This document shows positions 3,078 to 59,291 of a DNA stretch of 64,000 bases, piece after piece. This DNA comes from Planctomycetaceae bacterium. GTDB lineage: Bacteria; Planctomycetota; Planctomycetia; Pirellulales; Lacipirellulaceae. Made by a program: the position numbers and the translations under genes. The notes beneath the pieces were generated by a model that saw only the letters and a program-made list of their open reading frames with translations, did not search any database and was not told where the DNA came from. The stretch lies in contig QIKP01000017.1 of NCBI GenBank assembly GCA_003233055.1, forward strand, positions 8,299 to 72,298. The letters run 5' to 3'. Position 1 is the first letter of the stretch, and every line of letters starts with the position of its first letter.

Positions 3078-3102
3078 TAGCCGACGAGCTACGCCTCGTC
3101 GG
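3078..3102 (+). repeat. REP-like hairpin, family 1 (TAGCCGACGAGCTACGCCTCGTCGG)
   Basis: 8-bp stem CCGACGAG/CTCGTCGG; same sequence recurs at 27277, 31145, 31181, 36773, 47941. Confidence 0.9.
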
Positions 3103-3258
3103 GGCGAACCGTCCCCTCCCATCCCTTCTATTCCTCATTATCCGATGGCTGCTCGGGGGACGCTTTCTGTGACCTAGCTTTGGAAGGACGTTAGGGCGCG
3201 AAGTCTGCGTTCCTTCCCTCTGCCAACGCTGTCCGTCAATCCCAAGCCGCGCGTATCC

Positions 3259-4659
3259 ATGACCACCGCCGTCGCACCAGAACCTTCTTCCGCGCTGCTT
3301 GAATCTCTTCTGGGGGAGGGGACGTTCTCTCCTCAGGAGCCACAGACGCTCGAAGAAGTCGGGGTAAGCTCCGTTCTGATCGAAGGGTTGGCGATCAAGT
3401 ACCTGCTACAGGTCGGGACCTCCACCGGTCGGGACCTCGCGGACAAGCTCTGCCTTCCTTTTCCGTTGGTGGAAGAGATCCTCGTAGGGTTGCGCACCCG
3501 GCAAGTCGTCGTCCATATGGGGCAGGGGCAGTTCAATGACTACAGCTATCGGCTCACCGACGATGGGGCGGAGAGAGCTCGGGCGGCCATGCAGGCCTGT
3601 GCCTACATTGGCCCGGTGCCCGTACCACTCGAGGAGTACATCGTGTCGGTGGAGGCCCAGACAATTCGTGCCGAAGCGGTACTGCGAAGGGACTTGGCCA
3701 AGGCCTTTGAAGGCATCTCCGTTGAGCCAAAGATGCTCGACATCCTGGGCCCTGCCATCAACAGTGGGGCGGGCCTCTTCCTTTACGGCGCTCCGGGAAA
3801 TGGAAAAACAACCCTCGCCAAGCGGATTACCCGCTGCTTTGGCAACTCCATATGGATTCCTCGCACGCTGATCGAAGATGGGCAATTCGTCAAATTATTT
3901 GACGCCGCCTTTCACGAACCGATCGAGGCGACCCAATCGAGCATCATCAAAAGCGAGACCGTCGACAATCGCTGGATCAAGATTGGCCGGCCGACGGTCG
4001 TCGTGGGTGGCGAGCTGACGATGGACAGCCTCGAAATTCGCCACGACCCGGTTGCGAACGTCAGCGAAGCCTCGCTGCAACTCAAGAGCAACGGGGGCTG
4101 CCTACTCATCGATGACTTCGGTCGTCAACGCGTCGAGCCGACGGAGCTCCTCAATCGATGGATCGTTCCTCTGGAAAATCGTTTCGATTTCCTCTCCCTG
4201 GCGACCGGCCGGAAGATTCAGGTCCCGTTCGACCAACTGATTATTTTCTCCACCAACCTTGAACCGGACGACCTCGCCGACGAGGCATTTCTTCGGCGTA
4301 TTCCTTACAAAGTCGAAGTGGGCGATCCAGGACTTACCGAATTTCGCCAGCTATTCAAGCATTGCTGCGACTCCCTCGGGTGCGGCTATCGCCCCGAAGC
4401 GGTGGACTATCTGGTGGAGAAACACTACCGACCCCTCGGCCGGCCGCTACGGCGATGCCAAGCCCGCGACCTGCTGGCCCAGATTAAAAACTACTGCATC
4501 TACGAAGGGGTTTCCCTTGAATTGCGCCCTGACTACCTCGACCGAGCGGTGAGCGGCTACTTCACCGCTACCGGCAGCGAGAAGGCGAGCAGCGTCACCG
4601 ACCCGTCGGGCCAACCGAGCGACACGGCGGCAACTCCGGAGGCATCGAACCAAACGTGA
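3259..4659 (+). CDS. AAA+ ATPase with N-terminal winged-helix-like region
   Basis: Walker [10 protein letters not shown], Walker B LLIDDFG, FSTN sensor region, AFLRRI; paralogue at 52108-53616. Confidence 0.85.
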   Translation: MTTAVAPEPSSALLESLLGEGTFSPQEPQTLEEVGVSSVLIEGLAIKYLLQVGTSTGRDLADKLCLPFPLVEEILVGLRTRQVVVHMGQGQFNDYSYRLTDDGAERARAAMQACAYIGPVPVPLEEYIVSVEAQTIRAEAVLRRDLAKAFEGISVEPKMLDILGPAINSGAGLFLYGAPGNGKTTLAKRITRCFGNSIWIPRTLIEDGQFVKLFDAAFHEPIEATQSSIIKSETVDNRWIKIGRPTVVVGGELTMDSLEIRHDPVANVSEASLQLKSNGGCLLIDDFGRQRVEPTELLNRWIVPLENRFDFLSLATGRKIQVPFDQLIIFSTNLEPDDLADEAFLRRIPYKVEVGDPGLTEFRQLFKHCCDSLGCGYRPEAVDYLVEKHYRPLGRPLRRCQARDLLAQIKNYCIYEGVSLELRPDYLDRAVSGYFTATGSEKASSVTDPSGQPSDTAATPEASNQT

Positions 4660-8121: not shown

Positions 8122-9249
8122 ATGAATTCCTCGCTCTTCTCTGCCCCTTCGATCTGGACCCTCAGTGGACAGATTTCGGACGATGACTCGATGCGTCGAT
8201 TCACGCTCGACCTTTCTCCCTTCACGGTCGGACGGCGTCCCGATCGCTCGTTGACCCTACCGAGCGCGACCGTTTCGGGCAAGCATGCGGAATTTCTTAT
8301 TGAAGGCGAACAGCTTTACGTCCACGATCTTGGTAGCACCAATGGCACGTTCGTCAACGGCGACCGTGTGCGAGATCGCTGCGTGGTGAACCACGGCGAC
8401 CTCGTGCAATTCGCCCAGATCGTTTTCCGCACTAGCCGCGATACGGCGGCCACGCACCACTCCACGGTCGAAAACAACTCGGCCGATCGCGCATTAGCCC
8501 TCATCCAGTTCGACAAACTGATGACCGACCGGGCTGTCTTGCCTCACTTCCAACCGATCATCACGATCGACGACCGGGCGATCATCGGCTACGAAGTTCT
8601 CGGGCGCAGCCGGCTCTTTGGGCTCGCAGATCCCCATACGATGTTCATGGCGGCGGCGGTGCTCAATCTGGAATCGGAGCTAAGCCGTATTTTTCGTGTG
8701 GAAGGCATTCGCGAGGGGAAACCGTTGCCTTCGCAGCAGTTGTTCTTCGTCAATACCCACCCCAACGAAATCGCCGACCTCGAGTTGTTGATCTTCTCCC
8801 TTCGTGAACTACGAGAAATGGTTCCCGACAGGCCCATTATCCTGGAAATCCACGAAGCGACCGCTACCAAGACCACCGAGATGCGCGAGCTTCGCGCCGC
8901 GCTTACGGACCTCGATATGGGCCTCGCGTACGACGACTTTGGTGCGGGACAGGCAAGGCTCGTGGAGCTGGTCGATGTGCCGCCCGACTATCTGAAGTTC
9001 GACATGGCGCTGGTCCAAGGCATCGCCAGTGCCAGTCTTGGTCGTCAGCAAATGGTGAAGCAGCTTGTGCAGATGACGCGCGATCTGGGAATCCAACCGC
9101 TGGCCGAGGGAATCGAAACGGAAGAAGACCATGCCCTCTGCTCGGAAATCGGATTCTCGACCGCTCAAGGATTCCTTTACGGAAAGCCGGCCACGGCCAA
9201 AGCAACCCTCGCATCAGTTCAACAGGTCGCGGAATCGGCGCTGAGCTAG
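8122..9249 (+). CDS. FHA domain + EAL c-di-GMP phosphodiesterase
   Basis: FHA: VGRR...SGKHA...DLGSTNGTFVNG; EAL: FQPI, GYEVLGR, FVN, EIHE, DDFGAG, YLKFD, AEGIET, QGFLY. Start taken at ATG 8122. Confidence 0.9.
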   Translation: MNSSLFSAPSIWTLSGQISDDDSMRRFTLDLSPFTVGRRPDRSLTLPSATVSGKHAEFLIEGEQLYVHDLGSTNGTFVNGDRVRDRCVVNHGDLVQFAQIVFRTSRDTAATHHSTVENNSADRALALIQFDKLMTDRAVLPHFQPIITIDDRAIIGYEVLGRSRLFGLADPHTMFMAAAVLNLESELSRIFRVEGIREGKPLPSQQLFFVNTHPNEIADLELLIFSLRELREMVPDRPIILEIHEATATKTTEMRELRAALTDLDMGLAYDDFGAGQARLVELVDVPPDYLKFDMALVQGIASASLGRQQMVKQLVQMTRDLGIQPLAEGIETEEDHALCSEIGFSTAQGFLYGKPATAKATLASVQQVAESALS

Positions 9250-10710
9250 CTCCCAACTTTCATCTCCGGGCGACTCCACTACCTTCGGCTCGAACGAGCG
9301 AGCAACAATCGCACGCAACTCGGCAAGGTCGGCCAACTCTCCCATGCCCATCGCCTGCACGAGCAAGTTACCAATGGCGGTCGCCTCGATCGGGCCGGTA
9401 ACCACGGGCCTGCCGACCGCCGCAGCGGTCAACTCGCTGAGCAAGTGATTCTGCGTGCCGCCACCGACCACATGCAGCCGATCGATCGACCGGCCGAGTA
9501 GGCGTTCTAGTTCGCGGAGTGTTTCACCATAGCCAAGCGCTAAGCTCTCCAGGCAGCAGCGCACCAATTGGCCCACGCTCTCCGGTTCGGGTTGCCCCGA
9601 TTTTTGGGCAAATCTCCGGAGCTTGCCTGCCATGTCGCCCGGCATTCCAAACTCCGCGTCGTTGGGATCGACGAGCGTGCGAAACGGCTCCGAACGGCGA
9701 GCCTCTTCGACCAGCTCCGCGAAGCCGCAATCGTCCCCCGCAAGCTGCCACTCACGTTGCAACTCTTGCACGAGCCAGAGCCCGGCCAGGTTCTTGAGTA
9801 CCCGCACGGAACGATTCACCCCCCGTTCATTGGAAAAAGAGGCCTCGCGCGCCGCATCGGAGTAGAGCGGCTTCGGAAGCTCCGCCCCCAAGATCGACCA
9901 GGTCCCACTGGAGAGAAACGCCCAAGAATCCGTCCCTGTCGCCGGCACCGATGCGACTGCTGATGCCGTGTCGTGCGATCCCGGCATGATCACCTTCACC
10001 TCGGCGGAGACCTCGGCCTGCTGTGCAATTTCTTTTCGCAACGGCCCCAACAAGGTTCCTGGTTCGACGATTGTGCCGAGCAGGTTGGTCGGCAGGCCCA
10101 GCTCGCCAAGCAACTCCGTATCCCAATCGCCTGATGCCACGTTCAGCATGCTGCTCGTCGAGGCAATGGTCCGATCGGTTGCTCGGACTCCAGAAAGCCA
10201 GTAGTGGAACAGGTCGGGAAGAAACAGTAATTGGTCGGCGGCATCGAAAAGCCGTGGCTCCGCCTCCTGCCTGGCGGCGATCTGGAAAAGTGAATTGAAG
10301 GGCATGAACTGAATGCCAGTCCGCTGGTAAAGACGCTCAAATCCGCCGAGCTTTTCCAAAACTCGCTCGGCGGCTGGTCCGTTTTGCGGATCGCGATAGC
10401 AGTGGGGCAGGGCGAGTAGCTCGCCGCTTTTCCCCACCAGCGCCCAATCGACACCCCAGGTATCGACACCGACGCTCGCAAGGGGCACGTTGTTTTCGTC
10501 GCACCAATGACCGGCAGCCCGGAGTCCTTGGAGCAAGTTCAGCCAGATGCCGGTCAAATTCCAAACCGGGCCTGTCGGCGTCGAGCATGCCTCGTGTCCA
10601 AAGCGGTGGACCTCCTCAAGGCGCAGTCGGCAGGGATTCCCCTCCAAGACGCCAACGATGGCGCGACCGGAACTAGCGCCAAGGTCAAAAGCCAAGTGAG
10701 CAGTCGGCAT
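9214..10710 (-). CDS. rhaB: Rhamnulokinase/L-fuculokinase family FGGY sugar kinase
   Basis: AFDLGASSGRA, VDTWGVDW, HCYRD, SHDTASAV, SSGTWS, VGGGTQN, EATAIGN. Confidence 0.9.
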   Translation of the reverse strand: MPTAHLAFDLGASSGRAIVGVLEGNPCRLRLEEVHRFGHEACSTPTGPVWNLTGIWLNLLQGLRAAGHWCDENNVPLASVGVDTWGVDWALVGKSGELLALPHCYRDPQNGPAAERVLEKLGGFERLYQRTGIQFMPFNSLFQIAARQEAEPRLFDAADQLLFLPDLFHYWLSGVRATDRTIASTSSMLNVASGDWDTELLGELGLPTNLLGTIVEPGTLLGPLRKEIAQQAEVSAEVKVIMPGSHDTASAVASVPATGTDSWAFLSSGTWSILGAELPKPLYSDAAREASFSNERGVNRSVRVLKNLAGLWLVQELQREWQLAGDDCGFAELVEEARRSEPFRTLVDPNDAEFGMPGDMAGKLRRFAQKSGQPEPESVGQLVRCCLESLALGYGETLRELERLLGRSIDRLHVVGGGTQNHLLSELTAAAVGRPVVTGPIEATAIGNLLVQAMGMGELADLAELRAIVARSFEPKVVESPGDESWELAQRRFRDLLN

Positions 10711-10876
10711 GGCGTACGAGACTCCCAGCTAACAAGAAAAGTAGAAAAAGGGTTCCCCCCATGATCCCGCAATCCAACTAGAGGCGTCAAGATGGCTTGT
10801 GTTTAAGGGAGTCCCTTGAAAGCCCCCCCCAACGCATCCCCCGAAGCGAACCAAGGCGGGCGGCCAGCCACTCCCA

Positions 10877-11246
10877 CAGGACGATTGCAAAGTGGCTTTT
10901 TTGAACCGCCAAGAACGCCAAGCAAGAAAGTAACCGTTCACGGTGGGCAGAAGGAACCACGAATCGAACGAATCCGACGAATAACGAGCCGAGGAGGCCC
11001 CTAGCTCCGACCCAGTATCCCCGATCAAGCTTGGTCGGGGATACTGCGGGGCGATTTCTTTCTACCTCCTCCAGTCGGCCCATCGCTTGCGTCGCATTCG
11101 TCGAATTCGTTAGATTCGTGGTTTCCCCTGCCTTGGATTTTGTGAACGGTTACGAAAGAAAGAAGCCGAGTGGATAAACCACTTGTTTTGAATCTTTTTT
11201 CTCTGCTTGGCGTCCTTGGCGGTTTTTTGACTTTGCAATCGTCCTG
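10877..11246. mobile_element. Nested multi-layer palindromic repeat (MITE/REP composite)
   Basis: Five concentric inverted-repeat pairs: 10877-10893/11230-11246, 10904-10924/11204-11224, 10930-10941/11142-11153, 10955-10982/11096-11123, central hairpin 11013-11046. Confidence 0.85.
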
Positions 11247-11264
11247 ACCGCTCCCACGTGGGCG

Positions 11265-11293
11265 TTGATTTTCTGCGCAATGAAAACGACAAT
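11265..11293 (+). promoter_or_regulatory. Putative sigma70 promoter for fucI
   Basis: TTGATT-N17-GACAAT, 85 nt upstream of the start. Confidence 0.45.
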
Positions 11294-11377
11294 GGGGCGA
11301 TCCCGTTCGATTCGCTGGCCGTCTCGAATCCAAGCTCCGGCACTTATGGTACTGAAACCCCAAGGAGAGTTTTTCCC

Positions 11378-13150
11378 ATGTCCGTTACCTCTTCACCGAA
11401 AATTGGAATTCGTCCTACCATTGATGGCCGGCTGGGAGGCGTTCGCGAGTCGCTAGAAGACCAGACAATGGGGCTCGCCCAATCGGTCGCGAAATTTCTC
11501 TCCGAGAATGTCTTCCTCCCCGATGGCTCGCCAGTCGAGTGCGTGATCCACGATACTTGCATCGGCGGCGTGGCAGAAGCAGCGGCAGCGGAAGAGAAGT
11601 TTGCTCGTGAAGGGGTCGAGGTTTCCCTCACCGTCACACCTTGCTGGTGCTATGGGTCCGAGACGATGGACATGCACCCGCATCGCCCCAAGGCGGTTTG
11701 GGGGTTCAATGGCACCGAGCGCCCCGGCGCCGTTTACTTAGCGGCAGTGCTCGCCGGGCACACACAAAAGGGCCTGCCGGCATTTGGTATCTACGGGCGC
11801 GACGTCCAGGATGGCGGCGACAGCACGATCCCTGACGACGTTGCCGACAAGTTGCTCGCCTTCGCCCGCGCGGGGCTGAGCGTCGCACAGCTACGGGGGA
11901 AGTCGTACTTGTCGATCGGCGGCACGTCGATGGGCATTGCCGGGTCGGTGGTCGATTCCTCGTTCTTTGAAAAATATCTCGGAATGCGGGTCGAGGCAAT
12001 CGACATGACCGAGGTGGCCCGACGCATGACGCGAGGGATTTACGATCCGGACGAGTACGCCCTCGCCATGAATTGGGTCAAGGAAAAATGCCCCGAAGGC
12101 TTCGATGCCAACGCCAAGGAGAGCCAGCGAAGCCGCGAACAGCTCGACAGCGAATGGGAAAACAGCATCCGCATGGCGCTGATCACCCGCGACTTAATGG
12201 AAGGCAATCCGCGACTCACGGAAATGGGGCATGGCGAGGAGGGCCTCGGCCACAACGCAATCGCCGCCGGATTCCAAGGGCAGCGGCAATGGACCGACAC
12301 CTACCCGAATGGCGACTTCATGGAGGCCATCCTCAACACGTCATTCGACTGGAATGGCCGCCGCGCCCCTTACATCGTGGCGACCGAGAACGACGCGCTC
12401 AACGCGGTCACCATGCTGTTTGGCCACCTGCTGACCAACACGGCGCAGATCTTCGCCGACCTACGAACCTACTGGAGCCCCGATGCCGTGAAACGAGTCA
12501 CCGGGCACTCCTTGTCGGGCGATGCGGCGGGGGGCTTATTGCATCTGATCAACTCCGGACCGGCGACACTGGATGGCACGGGCCAACAAACCGTCGATGG
12601 TAAGCCCGCAATGAAACCTTGGTGGCAAGTCACCGACGAAGAACAGCAGGCCTGCCTCCAAGCGACGACTTGGCATCCGTCGATCACCGAATATTTCCCT
12701 GGAGGCGGATGGTCAACCCGCTACAAAACACGTGGTGGAATGCCGGCGACCATCGCAAGAATCAATCTGATCGATGGCCTTGGCCCCGCACTGCAACTTG
12801 CCGAAGGCGTGACGGTCGAGCTCCCCGACGACGCCCACGAGAAGCTCGACCAGCGAACCAACCCGACCTGGCCGACAACCTGGTTCGCAGCACGCGAGAC
12901 AGGCGAAGGGGCGTTCCGCGACACCTATACCGTGATGAACAACTGGGGCGCCAACCATTGCGTGATGAGTTGCGGCCACATCGGTGCGGACCTCATCACA
13001 CTCGCCTCGATGCTCCGCATCCCGGTCTACATGCACAACGTGCCCGACGAGCAGATTTTCCGCCCTAGTAGTTGGTCCGCCTTCGGCATGGCCGACCGCG
13101 AGGGGGGGGATTTCCGTGCGTGCAAAACGTACGGCCCGCTTTATTCGTAG
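11378..13150 (+). CDS. fucI: L-fucose isomerase
   Basis: [54 protein letters not shown]; SD AAGGAG before ATG 11378. Confidence 0.96.
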
Positions 13151-27241: not shown

Positions 27242-27276
27242 GGGAAGTAAGGAAGGGTAAGGGGTAAGGGAAAACA

Positions 27277-27299
27277 GCCGACGAGCTACGCCTCGTCGG
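27277..27299 (+). repeat. REP-like hairpin, family 1
   Basis: GCCGACGAGCTACGCCTCGTCGG, identical core to 3080-3102. Confidence 0.9.
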
Positions 27300-31080: not shown

Positions 31081-31144
31081 CGGAGTCGTGTCACCCTTTC
31101 AGCCGACGAGTGGAGTTTACCCGCCGAAGGAGGGCCTCGTTCCA

Positions 31145-31202
31145 GCCGACGAGCTACGCCTCGTCGGAACGACATCGGAACGACGAGGCGTAGCTCGTCG
31201 GC
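31145..31202. repeat. Inverted doublet of family 1 REP (REPIN/BIME-like)
   Basis: GCCGACGAGCTACGCCTCGTCGG, 13-nt spacer, CGACGAGGCGTAGCTCGTCGGC. Confidence 0.9.
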
Positions 31203-31232
31203 TATGCCTTTTTTTAAACCAATCGGCCTTTC

Positions 31233-34565: not shown

Positions 34566-35477
34566 ATGCTCCGTGAATCCGCAACTCCCGGCGAGCGCTT
34601 CCGAGCGGCTCTCGACGAGGAGAGGCCGCTCCAGTTGGCTGGCACGATCAATGCGTATTCGGCCCTGCTGGCGGAACGCGCTGGATTTCGAGCGATCTAC
34701 CTTTCGGGTGCCGGCGTGGCGAATGCCTCGTTCGGATTCCCCGATCTCGGGGTGACGACGCTGACGGATGTTTGCGAAGAAGTCCGCCGCATTACCGGGG
34801 CGACCCAACTCCCCCTGATGGTCGATGCCGATACCGGTTGGGGAGGGGCGATCATGATCGCCCGTACGATGCGGGACCTTGATCGTGCCGGCGCTGCAGG
34901 CTGCCACTTGGAAGACCAAGTCCTGACGAAACGATGCGGACATCGCCCTGGCAAGCAGCTTGTCTCGACGACCGAAATGTGTGACCGCCTGAAGGGGGCC
35001 GTTGACGGCCGATCGGACGAATCGTTTTTCCTGATGGCTCGTACCGACGCCGCTGCCATCGAGGGACAGGGTGCCGCGATCGAGCGAGCGCAAGCCTATG
35101 TGGCGGCCGGTGCCGACGCGATTTTCGCCGAAGCCTTCACAACGATCGATCAGTACCGCGAGATGACTGCGGCGGTCGAGGTGCCAGTGTTGGCCAACAT
35201 CACGGAGTTTGGCAAAACGCCCCTCTTCACCGTGACCCAACTGGGCGAGGCAGGCGTGCGAATGACACTGTATCCGCTCAGCGCGTTTCGCGCCATGAGC
35301 CAAGCGGCGTTGATGGTCTATGAAACACTCCGGCGCGACGGGACGCAAAAAGGGGTACTCGAGACCATGCAAACACGCGAATCTCTCTACGATGTTCTGG
35401 GGTACCATGCTCTTGAAAAGAAAACCGACCACCGTTCCAGGTCCGAAGAAGGAACCACGAATCCGACGAATGAGTGA
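34566..35477 (+). CDS. prpB: 2-methylisocitrate lyase
   Basis: [25 protein letters not shown] signature, [23 protein letters not shown]. Confidence 0.93.
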
Positions 35478-35541
35478 TGCCATTTTTTCGCTATTCGCGT
35501 CATTCGTGGTTTTTCCTGCCTTGGCTTCCGTGAACGGTTAC
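35429..35541. mobile_element. MITE-like palindromic element overlapping the prpB 3' end
   Basis: Degenerate left end CCACCGTTCCAGG, inner AACCACGAAT/ATTCGTGGTT pair (35453/35502), right end CCGTGAACGGTTAC (35528-35541). Confidence 0.7.
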
Positions 35542-35578
35542 GAAAATCGATAGCGATCCCAAGGAGAAACCCTTCACG

Positions 35579-36747: not shown

Positions 36748-36795
36748 GTAACCGTTCACGGAATCCGAGGGCCCGACGAGGCGTAGCTCGTTGGC
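36748..36795. repeat. Element end GTAACCGTTCACGG plus family 1 REP between convergent prpC and cca
   Basis: GTAACCGTTCACGG at 36748; CCGACGAGGCGTAGCTCGTTGGC at 36773. Confidence 0.8.
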
Positions 36796-36825
36796 CAGGG
36801 GCCCGGTCAACAGAAGGGCCGAAGA

Positions 36826-46924: not shown

Positions 46925-47036
46925 CTCTCGCTGCTCGACTCGGCTACGCCGAGATCTCGCTAGCGGGGGGGGCTCTCGCTGTTCGGCTCGGCTACGCTGA
47001 GATCTCGCTAGCGGGGGGGGCTCTCGCTGTTCGGCT
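46925..47036 (+). repeat. 48-bp tandem repeat (about 2.3 copies) right after the tRNA
   Basis: Units start at 46925, 46973, 47021; CTCTCGCTG...CTCGGCTACGCCGAG...GCTAGCGGGGGGGG. Confidence 0.9.
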
Positions 47037-47088: not shown

Positions 47089-47895
47089 ATGAGAATCCTT
47101 CGTTTCGTCGATCCCGCCGGCAATACGGGCTATGGTTGCGAGCACTCGGAGGGTGGTGTCACCCGTCTTGATGGCGAGCTCTTTGGCCCCCACCACGACA
47201 CGGGGGAAGCGGTCGAAGTCGCTCAGCGGCTTGCACCGCTCGCGCCATGCGACATCTACTGCATCGGCCTCAACTACGCGAAGCATGCGGAAGAAGGAGG
47301 CAAGCCGATCCCTGAATATCCGGTCGTCTTCATGAAGTCGAGCTCTGCGGTACAGCATCCGGGCGAGCCGATCGTCCTGCCTCGCAAGTTGCGAAGCGAT
47401 CGCGTCGACTACGAATGCGAACTGGCCGTGGTGATCGGCCGGGCCTGCAAGAACGCAACGCGAGACGAAGCGCTCGACTACGTTTTGGGCTACACCTGTG
47501 GGAACGACGTCAGCGCCCGCGACTGGCAAAAAAAAGGGGGCGGCGGGCAGTGGGTGCGAGGTAAGACCTTCGACACGTTTGCCCCACTCGGTCCGGTACT
47601 CGTGACCCAAGATGAAATCCCGAACCCCAACGACCTCCGCATCCGCACGACGCTCAATGGCCAAGTGATGCAAGACTGGAGTACAAGCGACATGATTTTC
47701 GATGTGCCAAGGCTCATCGAATTTTTAAGTGGTAGCACCACTTTACTGCCAGGCACGGTAATCTTTACTGGCACGCCCCATGGCGTTGGCTTCGCGCGCA
47801 AGCCTCCGGTTTATTTGCAGCCTGGCGACAGCGTGACGGTCGAAATCGAGAAGATCGGCCAGTTGACGAACCAGGTCGTGGAAGAAGAAATCTAA
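47089..47895 (+). CDS. Fumarylacetoacetate hydrolase family protein
   Basis: CIGLNYAKH, FMKS, DYECELAVVIG, GNDVSARDWQ, GKTFDTFAPLGP, IFTGTPHGVG. Confidence 0.94.
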   Translation: MRILRFVDPAGNTGYGCEHSEGGVTRLDGELFGPHHDTGEAVEVAQRLAPLAPCDIYCIGLNYAKHAEEGGKPIPEYPVVFMKSSSAVQHPGEPIVLPRKLRSDRVDYECELAVVIGRACKNATRDEALDYVLGYTCGNDVSARDWQKKGGGGQWVRGKTFDTFAPLGPVLVTQDEIPNPNDLRIRTTLNGQVMQDWSTSDMIFDVPRLIEFLSGSTTLLPGTVIFTGTPHGVGFARKPPVYLQPGDSVTVEIEKIGQLTNQVVEEEI

Positions 47896-48036
47896 CCGTT
47901 CACGGCCAGTAGGTTGGGCTTCTAGCCCGACGCTTTTCCCCCGACAAGGCGTAGCTCGTCGGCTAAGGGTTACACGCTTTCCTTTGATGAGCGTCTCGTT
48001 CCGGGGATAACGCTCTTTCGAATCGTAAACGGTTAC
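47892..48036. mobile_element. MITE-like element with REP cargo and flanking direct repeat
   Basis: Ends CTAACCGTTCACGG / CGTAAACGGTTAC; GTAG-type REP 47909-47931; family 1 REP 47941-47962; AAGAAATCTAAC at 47885 and 48037. Confidence 0.78.
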
Positions 48037-48043
48037 AAGAAAT

Positions 48044-48508
48044 CTAACGGCCCTGCGATTCCAGGACTCCCTCTGGCCGGACCACTCTCTTGGAGAGGGG
48101 ACTGGGGAGAGGGTCCGCAATGGCGATCCGCCGAGCCTTCTTGGTACTTCCCAGCTCCATGCTTTTACGGAAGGCCAAAAGCTGTTCGTCTGCTTGTAGG
48201 GCGGTAAGGAATCCTAATTCGACGACGCACTTGTCGATCGGTTTTCGGCGATCGGATTGTAGCATCAAGAGTTCCGCCAAATCGCGCTTCGTCAGCAGGC
48301 CAAGCTCGACCGCGATGTCGCCAAAACGGTCGTGGGGAAGATCCGTTTGCACGCGCAGCACACGAAACACATCCTGCGCGGCCATCCGGCCTTCTTCGAG
48401 CGCAATCAGGCCAATCGGAGGAAGTTCCTTACTCTGATGGGCGAGCGCTGCGACGAGCTGCTCTGCGGTAATCTTACGCTGCTGATGTAGAAACATTCCA
48501 AACTTCAT
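48044..48508 (-). CDS. Small protein with four tandem MshEN-like repeats (candidate c-di-GMP receptor)
   Basis: KFGMFL..RKITAEQL.AAL.HQ; PIGLIALEEGRM...V.RVL.VQ; RFGDIAVELGLLT..DL.ELL.LQ; PIDKCVVELGFLT. Confidence 0.7.
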   Translation of the reverse strand: MKFGMFLHQQRKITAEQLVAALAHQSKELPPIGLIALEEGRMAAQDVFRVLRVQTDLPHDRFGDIAVELGLLTKRDLAELLMLQSDRRKPIDKCVVELGFLTALQADEQLLAFRKSMELGSTKKARRIAIADPLPSPLSKRVVRPEGVLESQGR

Positions 48509-52107: not shown

Positions 52108-53616
52108 CTACATGACCGCAAAGTAGTTTTCGACCGCGAAGTCAAGCGTTTCGTTCGACATCACGGCAGGTTGTTTCGTGTACCGACAGTAGTTGCGGAT
52201 TTGCAATAAGAGATCACGCGGTTGGCAGCAGCGCATGGGGCGGTTCACCGCACGGTAGTGGTTTTCCATCAGGTAGTCGAGCGACTTCTCGTCGTAGGCG
52301 ACGCCGATAATGGGTGCCATGATACCAAACAACTTGCGGAAGGCTTCCTCGCTAGGATCGGTCACTTCGATCTTATACGGAATCCGGCGAAGGAAGGCGT
52401 CGTCCACGAGGTCCTTCGGCTCCAAGTTCGTGGAGAAGATAATCAGTTGATCGAAGGGGACCTGGATTTTCTTGCCGCTCGAGAGGTTGAGGAAGTCATA
52501 CCGCTTTTCTAGGGGGATAATCCATCGGTTGAGAAGCTCGTCGGTGGTCATCCTCTGACGACCAAAGTCGTCGATCACGAGCGTGCCGCAGTTGCTCTTG
52601 AGTTGTAGCGGGGCTTCACTGACGTTGGTGTTCGTGTTGAGGGTAACTTCGAGGGACTCCATGGTCAGTTCGCCGCCAACGACGATCGTTGGCCTGCGAA
52701 TCCGGACCCAGCGATTGTCCGCTTTTCGATCATCGAGAAGGCCCTCGAATTCTTCCACCGGTGCGGCTTCGTGCAAGCTCGGGTCGAAAACTCGCATGAT
52801 CTCACCATCCAGGCCGATGGCTCGTGGAATCCAGATGAACTCGCCGAACGCCTTGGTAACCCGCTCGGCAATGCTGGTCTTGCCATTGCCCGGTGCGCCA
52901 AACAGAAAGAGCCCGCGTCCCGAATTAATCGCCGGTCCCAGCCGCAAGAGCATTCGTTGGTCGATGAGCAAGTCCTCAAAAGCCCGAGCGAGATCTTCTT
53001 CAGAAGGCTGCTGGTTCGCGAGTGTTTGCTCGGAGACGCTGTGGAGGTACTGCTGGAGCGTGACGGGAGCGGCACCAAAATAGGTGCAATATTCCGAAAG
53101 TTTTTTGGCTCGCTCTCGCCCTTTGTTCGTCGGTTGGTAGATGTAGTCGTTGATCATCGCCGCGTTGCGAAACGCGATAAGCTGGTTCTGCTTCATCATT
53201 TGCAGTAACGGATCGATGAGTCGGAAAGGCAGCTTGATGGACTCCGACAGATCCCGCCCGCTCGCCTCGCTTCGCGCGCTGAGCGACTTGAGCAGCAAGT
53301 CCTCCACTTCACTTTCCGATAGCCCGGCCGCCGGGATGTCTTCTGGCTCTGCGGGATACCAATCGCCCTGAGCATCTTGGACATCGGCGTTGGAGGCCGC
53401 TTCCGGCGATGGGGGGGCGACACGAACCGCAGGGGAGGGAGCCGCTACGGTTTCTTCTGTAAGGGCGGAAGAGGGGGGGCTGGTCTCCAGCGCAGGCGGC
53501 AGCCCTTCCGCATTGGTGGTGAGTTGGTGGATACGATTGAGCAAAGAGTCGAGACGCTCCTGCCCTGTTTCGGGGGATGCTGACGTCGGGTCCCCCTCGA
53601 TGGTGCCAGTACTCAT
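52108..53616 (-). CDS. AAA+ ATPase with winged-helix-like region, paralogue of 3259-4659
   Basis: [53 protein letters not shown]; Pro/Ala-rich N-terminal extension. Confidence 0.85.
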
Positions 53617-55071: not shown

Positions 55072-55923
55072 ATGCAAGTCATTATTACTGCCGTAGGTCC
55101 CGACAATCGTGGCCTCGCCGATCCGATCGTTCACTCGGTTACCAGCCTTGGTGCCAACATCGGCGAAATTCAGATGTACGATCATGACCAAGAGTCGGTC
55201 TTTTCGATGCTGACACGGGTCGAAATCGACGAGAGCCGACGTGGCGAACTCGACGAGGCGATGAGTGAGGCAGCAAAACGGACCGGCCTCTCGGTGAGGA
55301 CTTGGTCGCCCGATCGGCTTGGTCGTCAGCCACGACTGGCAATCTGTGTGACCTACCGTTCGGAAACTCCCCTGGCAGTCCTGCGAGCGATTCGCGATGG
55401 GCTGATCAAGGCGGAAGCAAGCGTGATGATTGGCAATCGAGAGAAATGCCGGCATCTGGCGGAGCAGTTTAGCGTGCCTTGGGTCAATATCGCCAGCAAA
55501 GAGGGGGTCCCCAATGACGAGCGATTGATCGATGTTTGCGACGAACATCAAGTCGACTACATCGTCCTTGCCCGATACATGCGGGTGCTACCGGCGGCCA
55601 GTTGCTGGAAATATGCCGGTGGGCGGATTATCAATCTGCATCATGGGCTACTCCCCAGCTTCCCTGGCATGAGGCCCTACCAAGAGGCGTATGCGAGCCG
55701 AATGCTCACCTACGGGGCAACCTGCCATTTCATTGTGCCCGAACTCGATGCCGGTAATCAGATCGTCTATCAATCGACGTTCACGGTTCCCCCCGGCATG
55801 GGTTGCGACGAGATCATCCGCCGCGGGCAGGAGGACAACGAACCGCATTGCCTGGTCGAGGGCGTGCGCCGCGTGGTGGATGGCGAAGTGCAGCTCCACT
55901 TCAACCGAGTAGTGAGCCGATAG
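55072..55923 (+). CDS. purU: Formyltetrahydrofolate deformylase
   Basis: N-terminal ACT (GPDNRGL), VLARYMRVL, INLHHGLLPSFPG.RPY, GATCHF, LDAG. Confidence 0.92.
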   Translation: MQVIITAVGPDNRGLADPIVHSVTSLGANIGEIQMYDHDQESVFSMLTRVEIDESRRGELDEAMSEAAKRTGLSVRTWSPDRLGRQPRLAICVTYRSETPLAVLRAIRDGLIKAEASVMIGNREKCRHLAEQFSVPWVNIASKEGVPNDERLIDVCDEHQVDYIVLARYMRVLPAASCWKYAGGRIINLHHGLLPSFPGMRPYQEAYASRMLTYGATCHFIVPELDAGNQIVYQSTFTVPPGMGCDEIIRRGQEDNEPHCLVEGVRRVVDGEVQLHFNRVVSR

Positions 55924-56100
55924 AACAGTGATCACTCGGATGTTCCGCTAAGGCAATCGTTTGACGCTGAAATAGCAGCGCCGTGACCGGAACATGCGTA
56001 TGCGGCTCGCACTAGAGCAGTGATCACTCGGATGTTCCGCTAAGGCAATCGTTTGACGCTGAAATAGCAGCGCCGTGACCGGAACATGCGTGTGCGGCTC
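55921..56100 (+). repeat. 92-bp tandem duplication (2 copies), structured unit
   Basis: Units start at 55921 and 56013, near identical; internal ATGTTCCG/CGGAACAT and CGCTG/CAGCG stems. Confidence 0.92.
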
Positions 56101-56141
56101 CCACGTCGGGAGCCGAAACACTCCGGCGATCGACGCCGATT

Positions 56142-59090: not shown

Positions 59091-59291
59091 AAGGAACCAC
59101 GAATCCGACGCAAGCGATGGACAGACTCGTGGTTTTATTTCACCGCCGAGGAAGGGAAGTAGATTGTTTTTTAATTTAATTCCAACCGTTCTCTCGACGT
59201 CTCGGCGGTTCATCGGGCCTTGCCCCCGCCAAGCTTGGTCGGGGCTGCGGGGTTTTTCCTCTGCCGTGATTCGTGAGATTCGTGGTTCCTT
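59091..59291. mobile_element. Nested palindromic element, same family as 10877-11246
   Basis: AAGGAACCACGAATC/GATTCGTGGTTCCTT perfect 15-bp IR enclosing a CCCCGCCAAGCTTGGTCGGGG hairpin. Confidence 0.8.

Follow-up and report, generated by a model that had tools for sequence, protein, structure and literature searches.

The 64,000-nt window analysed here (C11:8299-72298; C numbers denote contigs) belongs to a 2.78-Mb, 79-contig assembly of a Planctomycetaceae bacterium with 59% G+C, and it contains a 370-bp palindrome between two divergent genes, one for an FGGY-family sugar kinase and one for L-fucose isomerase (fucI). A preliminary description of this DNA claimed five nested inverted-repeat layers at 10877-11246, which we call L1 (outermost) to L5 (central hairpin). 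All five were present at these coordinates when the complementarity of the arms was checked. The palindrome also fills over half of the gap between the kinase gene and fucI, as had been claimed (370 of 667 intergenic bp, or 55%). Folded as single-stranded DNA, the 370 nt reached -116.8 kcal/mol compared to -50.7 +/- 4.0 for shuffled sequences (z = -16.5), and 0 of 100 shuffles folded as well. The only open reading frames (ORFs) inside the palindrome were short and overlapping (98-112 aa), and an Rfam scan of 10500-11600 at E <= 1 gave no match.

A BLAST search of 10800-11330 against the whole assembly matched each layer 8-90 times, and the spacers between the layers were matched by one sister locus only. 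Motif scans found L1 at 49 sites with 2 mismatches and 109 with 3, L2 at 75 sites (3 mismatches), L3 at 219 (1 mismatch), L4 at 175 (1 mismatch) and the L5 core at 90 (2 mismatches). By our estimate for a random 17-mer with <=3 mismatches, about 6 L1 ends would be expected by chance, compared to the approximately 100 found. Motif sites grouped within 250 bp formed at least 489 clusters of dozens of architectures, or about one per 5.7 kb; the layers thus did not always occur as one fixed unit, the pattern that the preliminary description had held up as contrary to its proposals. Across the genome, 134 of the 141 pairs of neighbouring motifs in the same orientation followed the order 1 outside 2 outside 3 outside 4. 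The full 1-2-3-4-5-4-3-2-1 array was found once in the assembly, plus one degraded sister at C21:20855-21199. Inner layers do recur elsewhere in the window, as the preliminary description had noticed, but each of those loci holds only a subset of them (Table 1). Twenty-four L1-type sites (<=3 mismatches) were located within 300 bp of contig ends, many at an offset of ~73-90 nt; examples are C1, C4, C28, C31-C33 and C55 (~73 nt from the end). Because L1-type hits crowd the contig ends, the assembly breaks inside the outer repeat family, and copy numbers are therefore underestimated.

The bases directly to the left and right of each inverted pair were compared, with shifted flanks as controls. 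The L1 pairs of this genome (n = 14) gave a signal at exactly 10 bp, with a mean match of 6.9/10 versus 2.7 in controls, and 36% of them had flanks matching at 9 or more of 10 positions versus 0% of controls. These 14 complete copies of the outer unit, designated A, were 91-573 bp in length, and one of them, the 91-bp copy at C7:1408-1498, consists of L1 and L2 only. A search of other genomes with the pattern L1 + gap + AACCGCCAAG recovered 106 loci, 44 in metagenomes and 62 in at least 15 metagenome-assembled genomes (MAGs) of Pirellulales, including Bythopirellula, Lacipirellulaceae and Pirellula. From these we obtained 55 distinct paired copies of 142-326 bp, most of them 142-250 bp. Their flanks matched at 8 or more of 10 positions in 34 copies and perfectly (10/10) in 19, compared to 0.4% of controls, with a mean of 7.0/10 versus 2.6. 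None of the 55 carried L3 or L4. In external genomes L2 was always accompanied by L1, and the number of repeat units differed between copies; L2 is not an independent layer but belongs to the L1 element as its subterminal body. Genes on the contigs bearing the outer unit were at best 72-79% identical to this genome, so the outer family crosses species. One complete Bythopirellula chromosome (G308) had eight copies of ~155 bp and no long pair, and three complete genomes of the same genus showed the family at background level only. A GACGATTGCAAAGTC-ended element with a 10-bp flank repeat in another genome evidently belongs to the same outer family.

For L3 pairs the signal was at exactly 8 bp, with 16 of 71 pairs matching at 6 or more of 8 positions versus 0.6% of controls. 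Perfect 8-bp duplications were found at C18:48980 (CCGGCTTC), C38:3613 (CATGCAGC), C51:12425 (GTTGCTTG) and C23:1084 (CGGCCCTC). L3-ended elements with duplications in the window, at 47885-48048 and 35420-35550, were checked against the sequence and are consistent with these statistics. The high-confidence duplications were somewhat A/T- or purine-rich, which would fit a target in the A-rich centre of A. L4 pairs showed no duplication at any length tested and scored below control because the flanks of L4 are themselves inverted repeats. The spacing from L3 to L4 was 23-30 nt in 58 of 68 cases, so the two form one composite end; the spacing from L2 to L3 varied from 21 to 196 nt, as expected for independent insertion. 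Elements ended by L3 with good duplications but other interiors were present at C38:3613 and at 47893-48036 of the window, where the duplication AAGAAATC is perfect if the left end is read without its terminal G. L4 therefore marks a subfamily of the inner unit, B, and not a separate layer. Duplication tests and spacing thus reduce the five layers to three units: L1 with L2 forms A, L3 with L4 forms B, and the hairpin is the third. The combined L3 + L4 end occurred 32 times in this genome and 0 times in 300 other genomes of the order. Since A is widespread and this end is confined to one genome, A and B have different histories.

Removal of positions 10930-11161 (B plus one copy of its duplication) left 138 bp that were collinear, end to end, with uninterrupted A elements. 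This 138-bp form was 84% identical to locus L069 over 135 nt, including the interior ...CCGAGTG(G/A)ATAAACC(A/G)CTTGTTT..., and 77% identical to locus L040 over its full length. Among the sequences available, these collinear uninterrupted A elements come nearest to an empty site. The sister copy at C21 was 87% identical to the palindrome across all layers and across the otherwise unique spacers, and had lost 11 nt of the hairpin as well as 4 nt and 9 nt of CGCCAAG-repeat sequence on the arms. Its flanks differ from those in the window, and it has a 10-bp duplication of its own (GGGGTGTTGC and GTGGTATTGC, 8/10). The sister shares the nest yet has its own flanks and duplication; therefore, the nest formed first and was then transposed by its outer ends. 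B-type (L3/L4) modules were carried by 11 of the 14 complete A copies, among them a second composite subfamily, of higher copy number, in which B has another position. Because B lies at differing positions in A, either B entered A at least twice or composites spread preferentially.

Taken together, these data indicate, with a probability that we put at about 0.85, that the palindrome consists of three repeat units that were inserted one into another and later moved together. It is an ISAs1-type miniature inverted-repeat transposable element (MITE) invaded by a second MITE that carries a hairpin like those of repetitive extragenic palindromes (REPs), which is ordinary nesting of mobile DNA and not a new kind of element. 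The preliminary description had offered two proposals. The first, successive insertion of small elements into each other, was borne out by the two duplicated boundaries, the separate phyletic distributions and the uninterrupted outer form, but for three units and not five. The second, a modular element with exchangeable cargo, is partly true of a later stage, as the sister copy moved whole and the interiors of L3-ended elements differ. A summary of the features can be found in Table 1.

Table 1. Features at the kinase/fucI locus and loci where inner layers recur, in window coordinates
Feature	Position	Strand	Details
FGGY-family sugar kinase gene	9214-10710	-	Pfam FGGY_N and FGGY_C
Outer MITE 10-bp target-site duplication, left	10867-10876		GCCACTCCCA; 8/10 vs 11247-11256
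L1, outer MITE left terminal inverted repeat	10877-10893	+	CAGGACGATTGCAAAGT; 17/17 complementary to 11230-11246
L2, left subterminal CGCCAAG 9-mer repeats, outer MITE body	10904-10924	+	20/21 complementary to 11204-11224
Inner MITE 8-bp target-site duplication, left	10922-10929		GCAAGAAA; 7/8 vs 11154-11161
Inner MITE B, 224 bp (L3, L4, interior, central hairpin)	10930-11153		ends GTAAC...GTTAC, 8-bp duplication
L3, inner MITE left terminal repeat	10930-10941	+	GTAACCGTTCAC; 12/12 complementary to 11142-11153
L4, left subterminal module	10946-10982	+	GGAACCACGAAT and three ACGAATCNN 9-mers; 37-nt arm, 86% complementary to 11096-11132
L5, central REP-like palindrome	11013-11046		16/17 per arm; family consensus TAGCCCCGACCAAGCTTGGTCGGGGCTA
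L4, inner MITE right subterminal module	11096-11132	-	complementary to left arm
L3, inner MITE right terminal repeat	11142-11153	-	complementary to left L3
Inner MITE 8-bp duplication, right	11154-11161		GAAAGAAA
Outer MITE interior, small terminator-like hairpin at 11167-11185	11162-11203		conserved in sister copy and uninterrupted L069
L2, right subterminal CGCCAAG repeats	11204-11224	-	complementary to left L2
L1, outer MITE right terminal inverted repeat	11230-11246	-	complementary to left L1
Outer MITE 10-bp duplication, right	11247-11256		ACCGCTCCCA
L-fucose isomerase gene (fucI)	11378-13150	+	Pfam Fucose_iso_N1, N2 and C
Recurrence locus	35451-35541		L4 plus L3
Recurrence locus	47892-48036		L3 pair around a different hairpin; no L4
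Recurrence locus	59093-59289		L4 pair around an L5-type hairpin; no L3
Recurrence locus	62554		lone L5-type hairpin

The palindrome has the generic traits of a MITE: terminal inverted repeats, duplications of fixed length, small size (370 bp), multiple copies and no transposase gene. An autonomous insertion sequence (IS) with the same ends was found for the outer unit only, in another genome. ISAs1 elements have 14-22-bp terminal repeats that start with CAGGG, and a 10-bp direct repeat (PMC11946415). The outer unit is like them in its 17-bp repeats beginning CAGG, its 10-bp duplication (peak k = 10) and the occurrence of an ISAs1 transposase within the same ends. This transposase, of the sort with matching ends that the preliminary description had proposed to look for, is from a related MAG, where an element of 1,237 bp (L133:344-1580) is bounded on each side by perfect CAGGAGAACTGCAAAGT, a terminal repeat of the L1 family. 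It encloses an ISAs1 transposase that matched NF033564 in two pieces (95.7 and 62.3 bits) as well as PF13808 and PF01609. The two frames overlap at GACCGAAAAAAAGGGG (an A7G run), which could reflect programmed -1 frameshifting or a sequencing error in the homopolymer. The end of the MITE resembles the end of the L133 IS over ~35 bp, at one end; unlike the IS, the MITE body has palindromic CGCCAAG 9-mer repeats, which are MITE-specific. A search for PF13808 in seven MITE-bearing genomes gave matches in two, with eight in G311, and L133 was among the matches. At L132 the same terminal repeat was located ~97 bp before an ISAs1 ORF. This ISAs1 copy (G311:C117, ~1384-2745) ends at profile position 196/314, after which comes a fragment of an IS66 transposase, its C-terminal third; either one IS was disrupted by another or the junction is an assembly chimera.

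Two further candidates for the outer partner were set aside. The PF01609 match at C3:20782 looks, in our reading, like an IS5-type fragment, and no L1-like repeat (<=4 mismatches) was present within ~3 kb of it. Between the two L1 ends of a 3.9-kb pair in locus L037 there are ordinary genes (one for an FAD oxidoreductase, next to an amidase gene) and no transposase. Matching flanks were not seen in this genome for any L1 or L3 pair with a spacing of 0.7-3.5 kb.

For the inner unit, the nearest known relatives are in the IS66 family. IS66 terminal repeats start with GTAAGCG and the direct repeats are 8 bp (PMC11946415); ISDge4 has the ends GTAACTGCTCAGCA and an 8-bp direct repeat (PMC12898284). 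The inner unit is like IS66 elements of the ISBst12 group in its ends, 5'-GTAAC...GTTAC-3', and its 8-bp duplication (peak k = 8, with four copies at 8/8). Its end GTAACCGTTCAC shares GTAA with IS66, not GCG, and resembles the ISBst12-group end GTAACTGCTCAGCA. Unlike the IS66 case, no IS66 transposase with ends matching the inner unit was found in this genome, and we know of no IS66 element described as having a long subterminal run of ACGAATCNN 9-mers. A single IS66-like gene was present, on C78 (PF03050, E = 7e-12), and it was rejected as the partner of B, being single-copy and having an end (GTAACACTTCAGCC) that matches L3 at only 9/12. An IS66 origin of B is tentative, at somewhat below even odds. 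The C78 gene itself (C78:1503-3098) is an IS66/ISBst12-like transposase in two frames, whose end GTAACACTTCAGCC abuts an integrase-like ORF. That ORF adjoins an apparent tRNA gene (~1025-1090), and an IS may have entered an integrated element here.

The history that we propose has three steps. A ~138-bp ISAs1-family MITE with 17-bp ends (CAGGACGATTGCAAAGT), subterminal CGCCAAG repeats and an A-rich centre was there first. A 224-bp MITE then entered the A-rich centre and duplicated 8 bp, G[C/A]AAGAAA, as the duplication and the uninterrupted homologues show. This second MITE ends in GTAACCGTTCAC, has GGAACCACGAAT and ACGAATCNN 9-mers at a constant distance from that end, and bears a REP-like palindrome near its middle. 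Finally, the composite, with its outer ends intact, transposed as a whole at least once and duplicated 10 bp at each new site, the sites being the one between the divergent FGGY kinase gene and fucI and the one at C21:20855-21199. An ISAs1-family DDE transposase acting in trans may have bound the outer 17-bp ends and made staggered cuts 10 bp apart, and an IS66/ISBst12-like transposase, with its 8-bp duplication, may have mobilised the inner unit. The near-concentric layout could be a matter of survival, as a host element would stay mobile only after insertions between its two ends. Hairpin-tip targeting as the cause of concentricity was rejected for now, since the inner unit misses the centre of A by 16-20 bp and the hairpin misses that of B by ~12 bp. 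It is also imaginable, though improbable, that composites out-multiplied the simple form and that the added palindromic layers favoured transposition or retention, amounting to cooperative MITE-on-MITE evolution. Such a benefit might come from ends brought together on an extruded hairpin, or from recruitment of a host protein able to recognise the tandem 9-bp repeats common to several module families (CGCCAAGNN, ACGAATCNN and GCAGATANN).

Several results weigh against nested insertion followed by movement of the composite. No FucI homologue was found in the 12 relatives searched (six of the same genus), and with it no orthologous empty site; the search for such a site also gave no exact-protein record elsewhere, and there was no near-identical strain among the 106 outer-unit loci. 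A recognisable duplication was missing in 77% of L3 pairs. The 8-bp duplication at the palindrome is of low complexity (AAGAAA) and alone could be due to chance, so that its weight derives from the statistics of the whole family and from the uninterrupted homologues that are collinear with A. No autonomous partner for the inner unit was found in the genome. The outer repeat starts with CAGGA (CAGGACG or CAGGAGA) and not with CAGGG, matching 4 of the 5 ISAs1 signature bases. No target duplication was seen around the partner IS at L133, whose transposase is interrupted at the A7G run. An ISAs1 transposase was not found in this 2.78-Mb, 79-contig assembly, including by a PF13808 search, and the partner is known from the related MAG only. 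This last absence is unsurprising because the contigs of this short-read MAG break inside these repeats, and the fragmented assembly is probably missing multi-copy IS elements.

A different explanation is that there is one modular MITE family, with long ends that always run L1 to L4 in order, so that the palindrome would be a single element of which only the central cargo varies. The ordered motif pairs (134 of 141) would follow from this, as would the L3/L4-type modules in 11 of the 14 complete L1-ended copies, and the composite did transpose whole. We consider a single modular family very unlikely. L3 and L4 were in 0 of the 55 external L1 + L2 elements, the 91-bp copy on C7 has neither, L3-ended elements outside L1 elements have perfect 8-bp duplications of their own (C18:48980, C38:3613 and C51:12425), the L2-to-L3 spacing ranges over 21-196 nt, and the ISAs1 IS with the same terminal repeat lacks L2 to L4. 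The independent occurrence of the units and their separate duplications have already largely refuted it.

The palindrome could alternatively be a mosaic like the bacterial interspersed mosaic elements (BIMEs) of enterobacteria, in which palindromic modules are joined by recombination, gene conversion or slippage without transposition and are maybe kept for binding by nucleoid or topology proteins. BIME modules are bound by IHF, gyrase or Pol I. The likeness is in the mosaic combinations of a few palindromic and non-palindromic modules in intergenic DNA, and it extends to the 489 or more module clusters in many combinations, the many L3 pairs without duplications and the tandem 8-9-bp repeat design common to several module families; the central hairpin, moreover, is in a REP-like family, and GTAG REPs are known in Planctomycetes (PMC3733652). 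Assembly without transposition is nevertheless most improbable here, given that duplications of exactly 10 bp (L1) and 8 bp (L3) were far above controls, that an IS with the same ends exists, and that the composite was found elsewhere with new flanks and a new duplication. BIMEs are without terminal repeats flanked by fixed-length duplications and without a DDE-transposase partner, unlike two of the module sets here.

A selected regulatory palindrome of the kinase/fucI region, which might form a cruciform, yield a structured leader RNA or bind a sugar-responsive regulator, could draw on the 55% occupancy of the gap, the very stable predicted fold and the terminator-like hairpin, but is hardly credible when the conserved parts are all genome-wide repeats with spacers unique to this copy and its sister, the sister is in an unrelated locus, Rfam gave no match, the symmetry is equal on both strands as for a DNA-level feature, and the native promoters could lie in the sequence outside the element, ~166 bp of which precedes the start of the kinase gene and 131 bp that of fucI. 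The single sigma-70-like match of a consensus scan (10790-10761) is outside the element.

MITE-into-MITE insertion is well known in maize and rice, and nested MITEs occur in plants and fungi. The nest described here is like those, and like the Correia/NEMIS, RUP, ERIC and Nezha elements, in being small and non-coding, with terminal repeats, target duplications and a high intergenic copy number. It is unlike them in being a three-tier, near-concentric nest that is mobile as a composite, which is undescribed for Pirellulales in the literature searched. Nested MITEs have been mentioned (PMC5172404, PMC3227409); for MITEs in Pirellulales, the literature searched contained nothing.

The central hairpin calls for separate treatment. 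L5 is a 28-34-bp palindrome, and its family of 90 copies (<=2 mismatches) has unrelated flanks, with 58 clusters holding nothing else. Many family copies begin GTAGCCCC; the copy here reads GTAT. After several B ends elsewhere comes ...CGGCAGAGGAGGCC... and then either an L5-type hairpin or a hairpin of a second family; hairpins thus repeatedly adjoin B ends. The L5 hairpin was either inserted into B separately or already there when B formed. The second family, (TAG)CCGACGAGCTACGCCTCGTCGG(CTA), had 223 sites at 3 mismatches. In the window it is located at 31144-31203, 3078-3103, 27276-27299, 36772-36801 and 47941-47964. It often forms inverted doublets ~14 nt apart (21 '6> 6<' clusters), a REPIN-like layout, and it can stand in for the L5-type hairpin inside L1- or L3-ended elements.

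REPs and REPINs are GTAG-tagged palindromes mobilised by RAYT tyrosine transposases. The central unit is like them as a ~28-bp palindrome with ~90 dispersed copies, many beginning GTAGCCCC, in a genome with four Y1_Tnp genes (C42:1428-1901, C40:23178-23777, C64:4872-5441 and C3:29546-30106). It is unlike them in that the tag here is GTAT, GTAG is inside the stem and not unpaired, and no RAYT gene with these hairpins on its flanks was found. No perfect stem of 9 bp or more was present within a few hundred to ~1,000 bp on either side of these genes; one imperfect L5-type hairpin was ~600 bp from the Y1_Tnp gene on C64. Di Nocera and colleagues have reported GTAG-tagged REPs in Planctomycetes (PMC3733652). 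Of the four Y1_Tnp genes, one encodes a canonical IS200-type transposase (150 bits); the other three are divergent Y1_Tnp-like ORFs (186-199 aa) and possible RAYTs.

An unnamed, widespread Pirellulales repeat (CAGGAG/CNNYTGCAAAGT ends, CGCCAAG repeats) is here assigned to the ISAs1 family and its duplication length is given. The repeat modules break assembly and likely produce spurious short ORFs, and their consensus sequences can be used directly as a repeat mask in the annotation of planctomycete MAGs. The locus also provides a clean, datable bacterial case of MITE-in-MITE nesting followed by movement of the composite, for which no new mechanism is required.

Other repeats were also seen in the window. 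At 55921-56104, a 92-nt unit (TAGAACAGTGATCACTCGGATGTTCCGCTAAGGCAATCGTT...) is in tandem duplicate with 97% identity. It also adjoins L4 ends at C32:27255, C60:10349 and C66:625, and is therefore another dispersed module family. A 48-nt unit with a terminal G8 run is likewise in tandem duplicate at 46925-47020 (94% identity). Across the genome, several unrelated module families have a common plan in which a short end precedes a tandem run of two to four units of 8-9 bp (CGCCAAGNN, ACGAATCNN, GCAGATANN and GCGCAAAG). Two inverted stretches of 164-185 nt were 77% identical between 3964-4328 and 52355-52719; these are probably paralogous coding sequence outside the repeat system.

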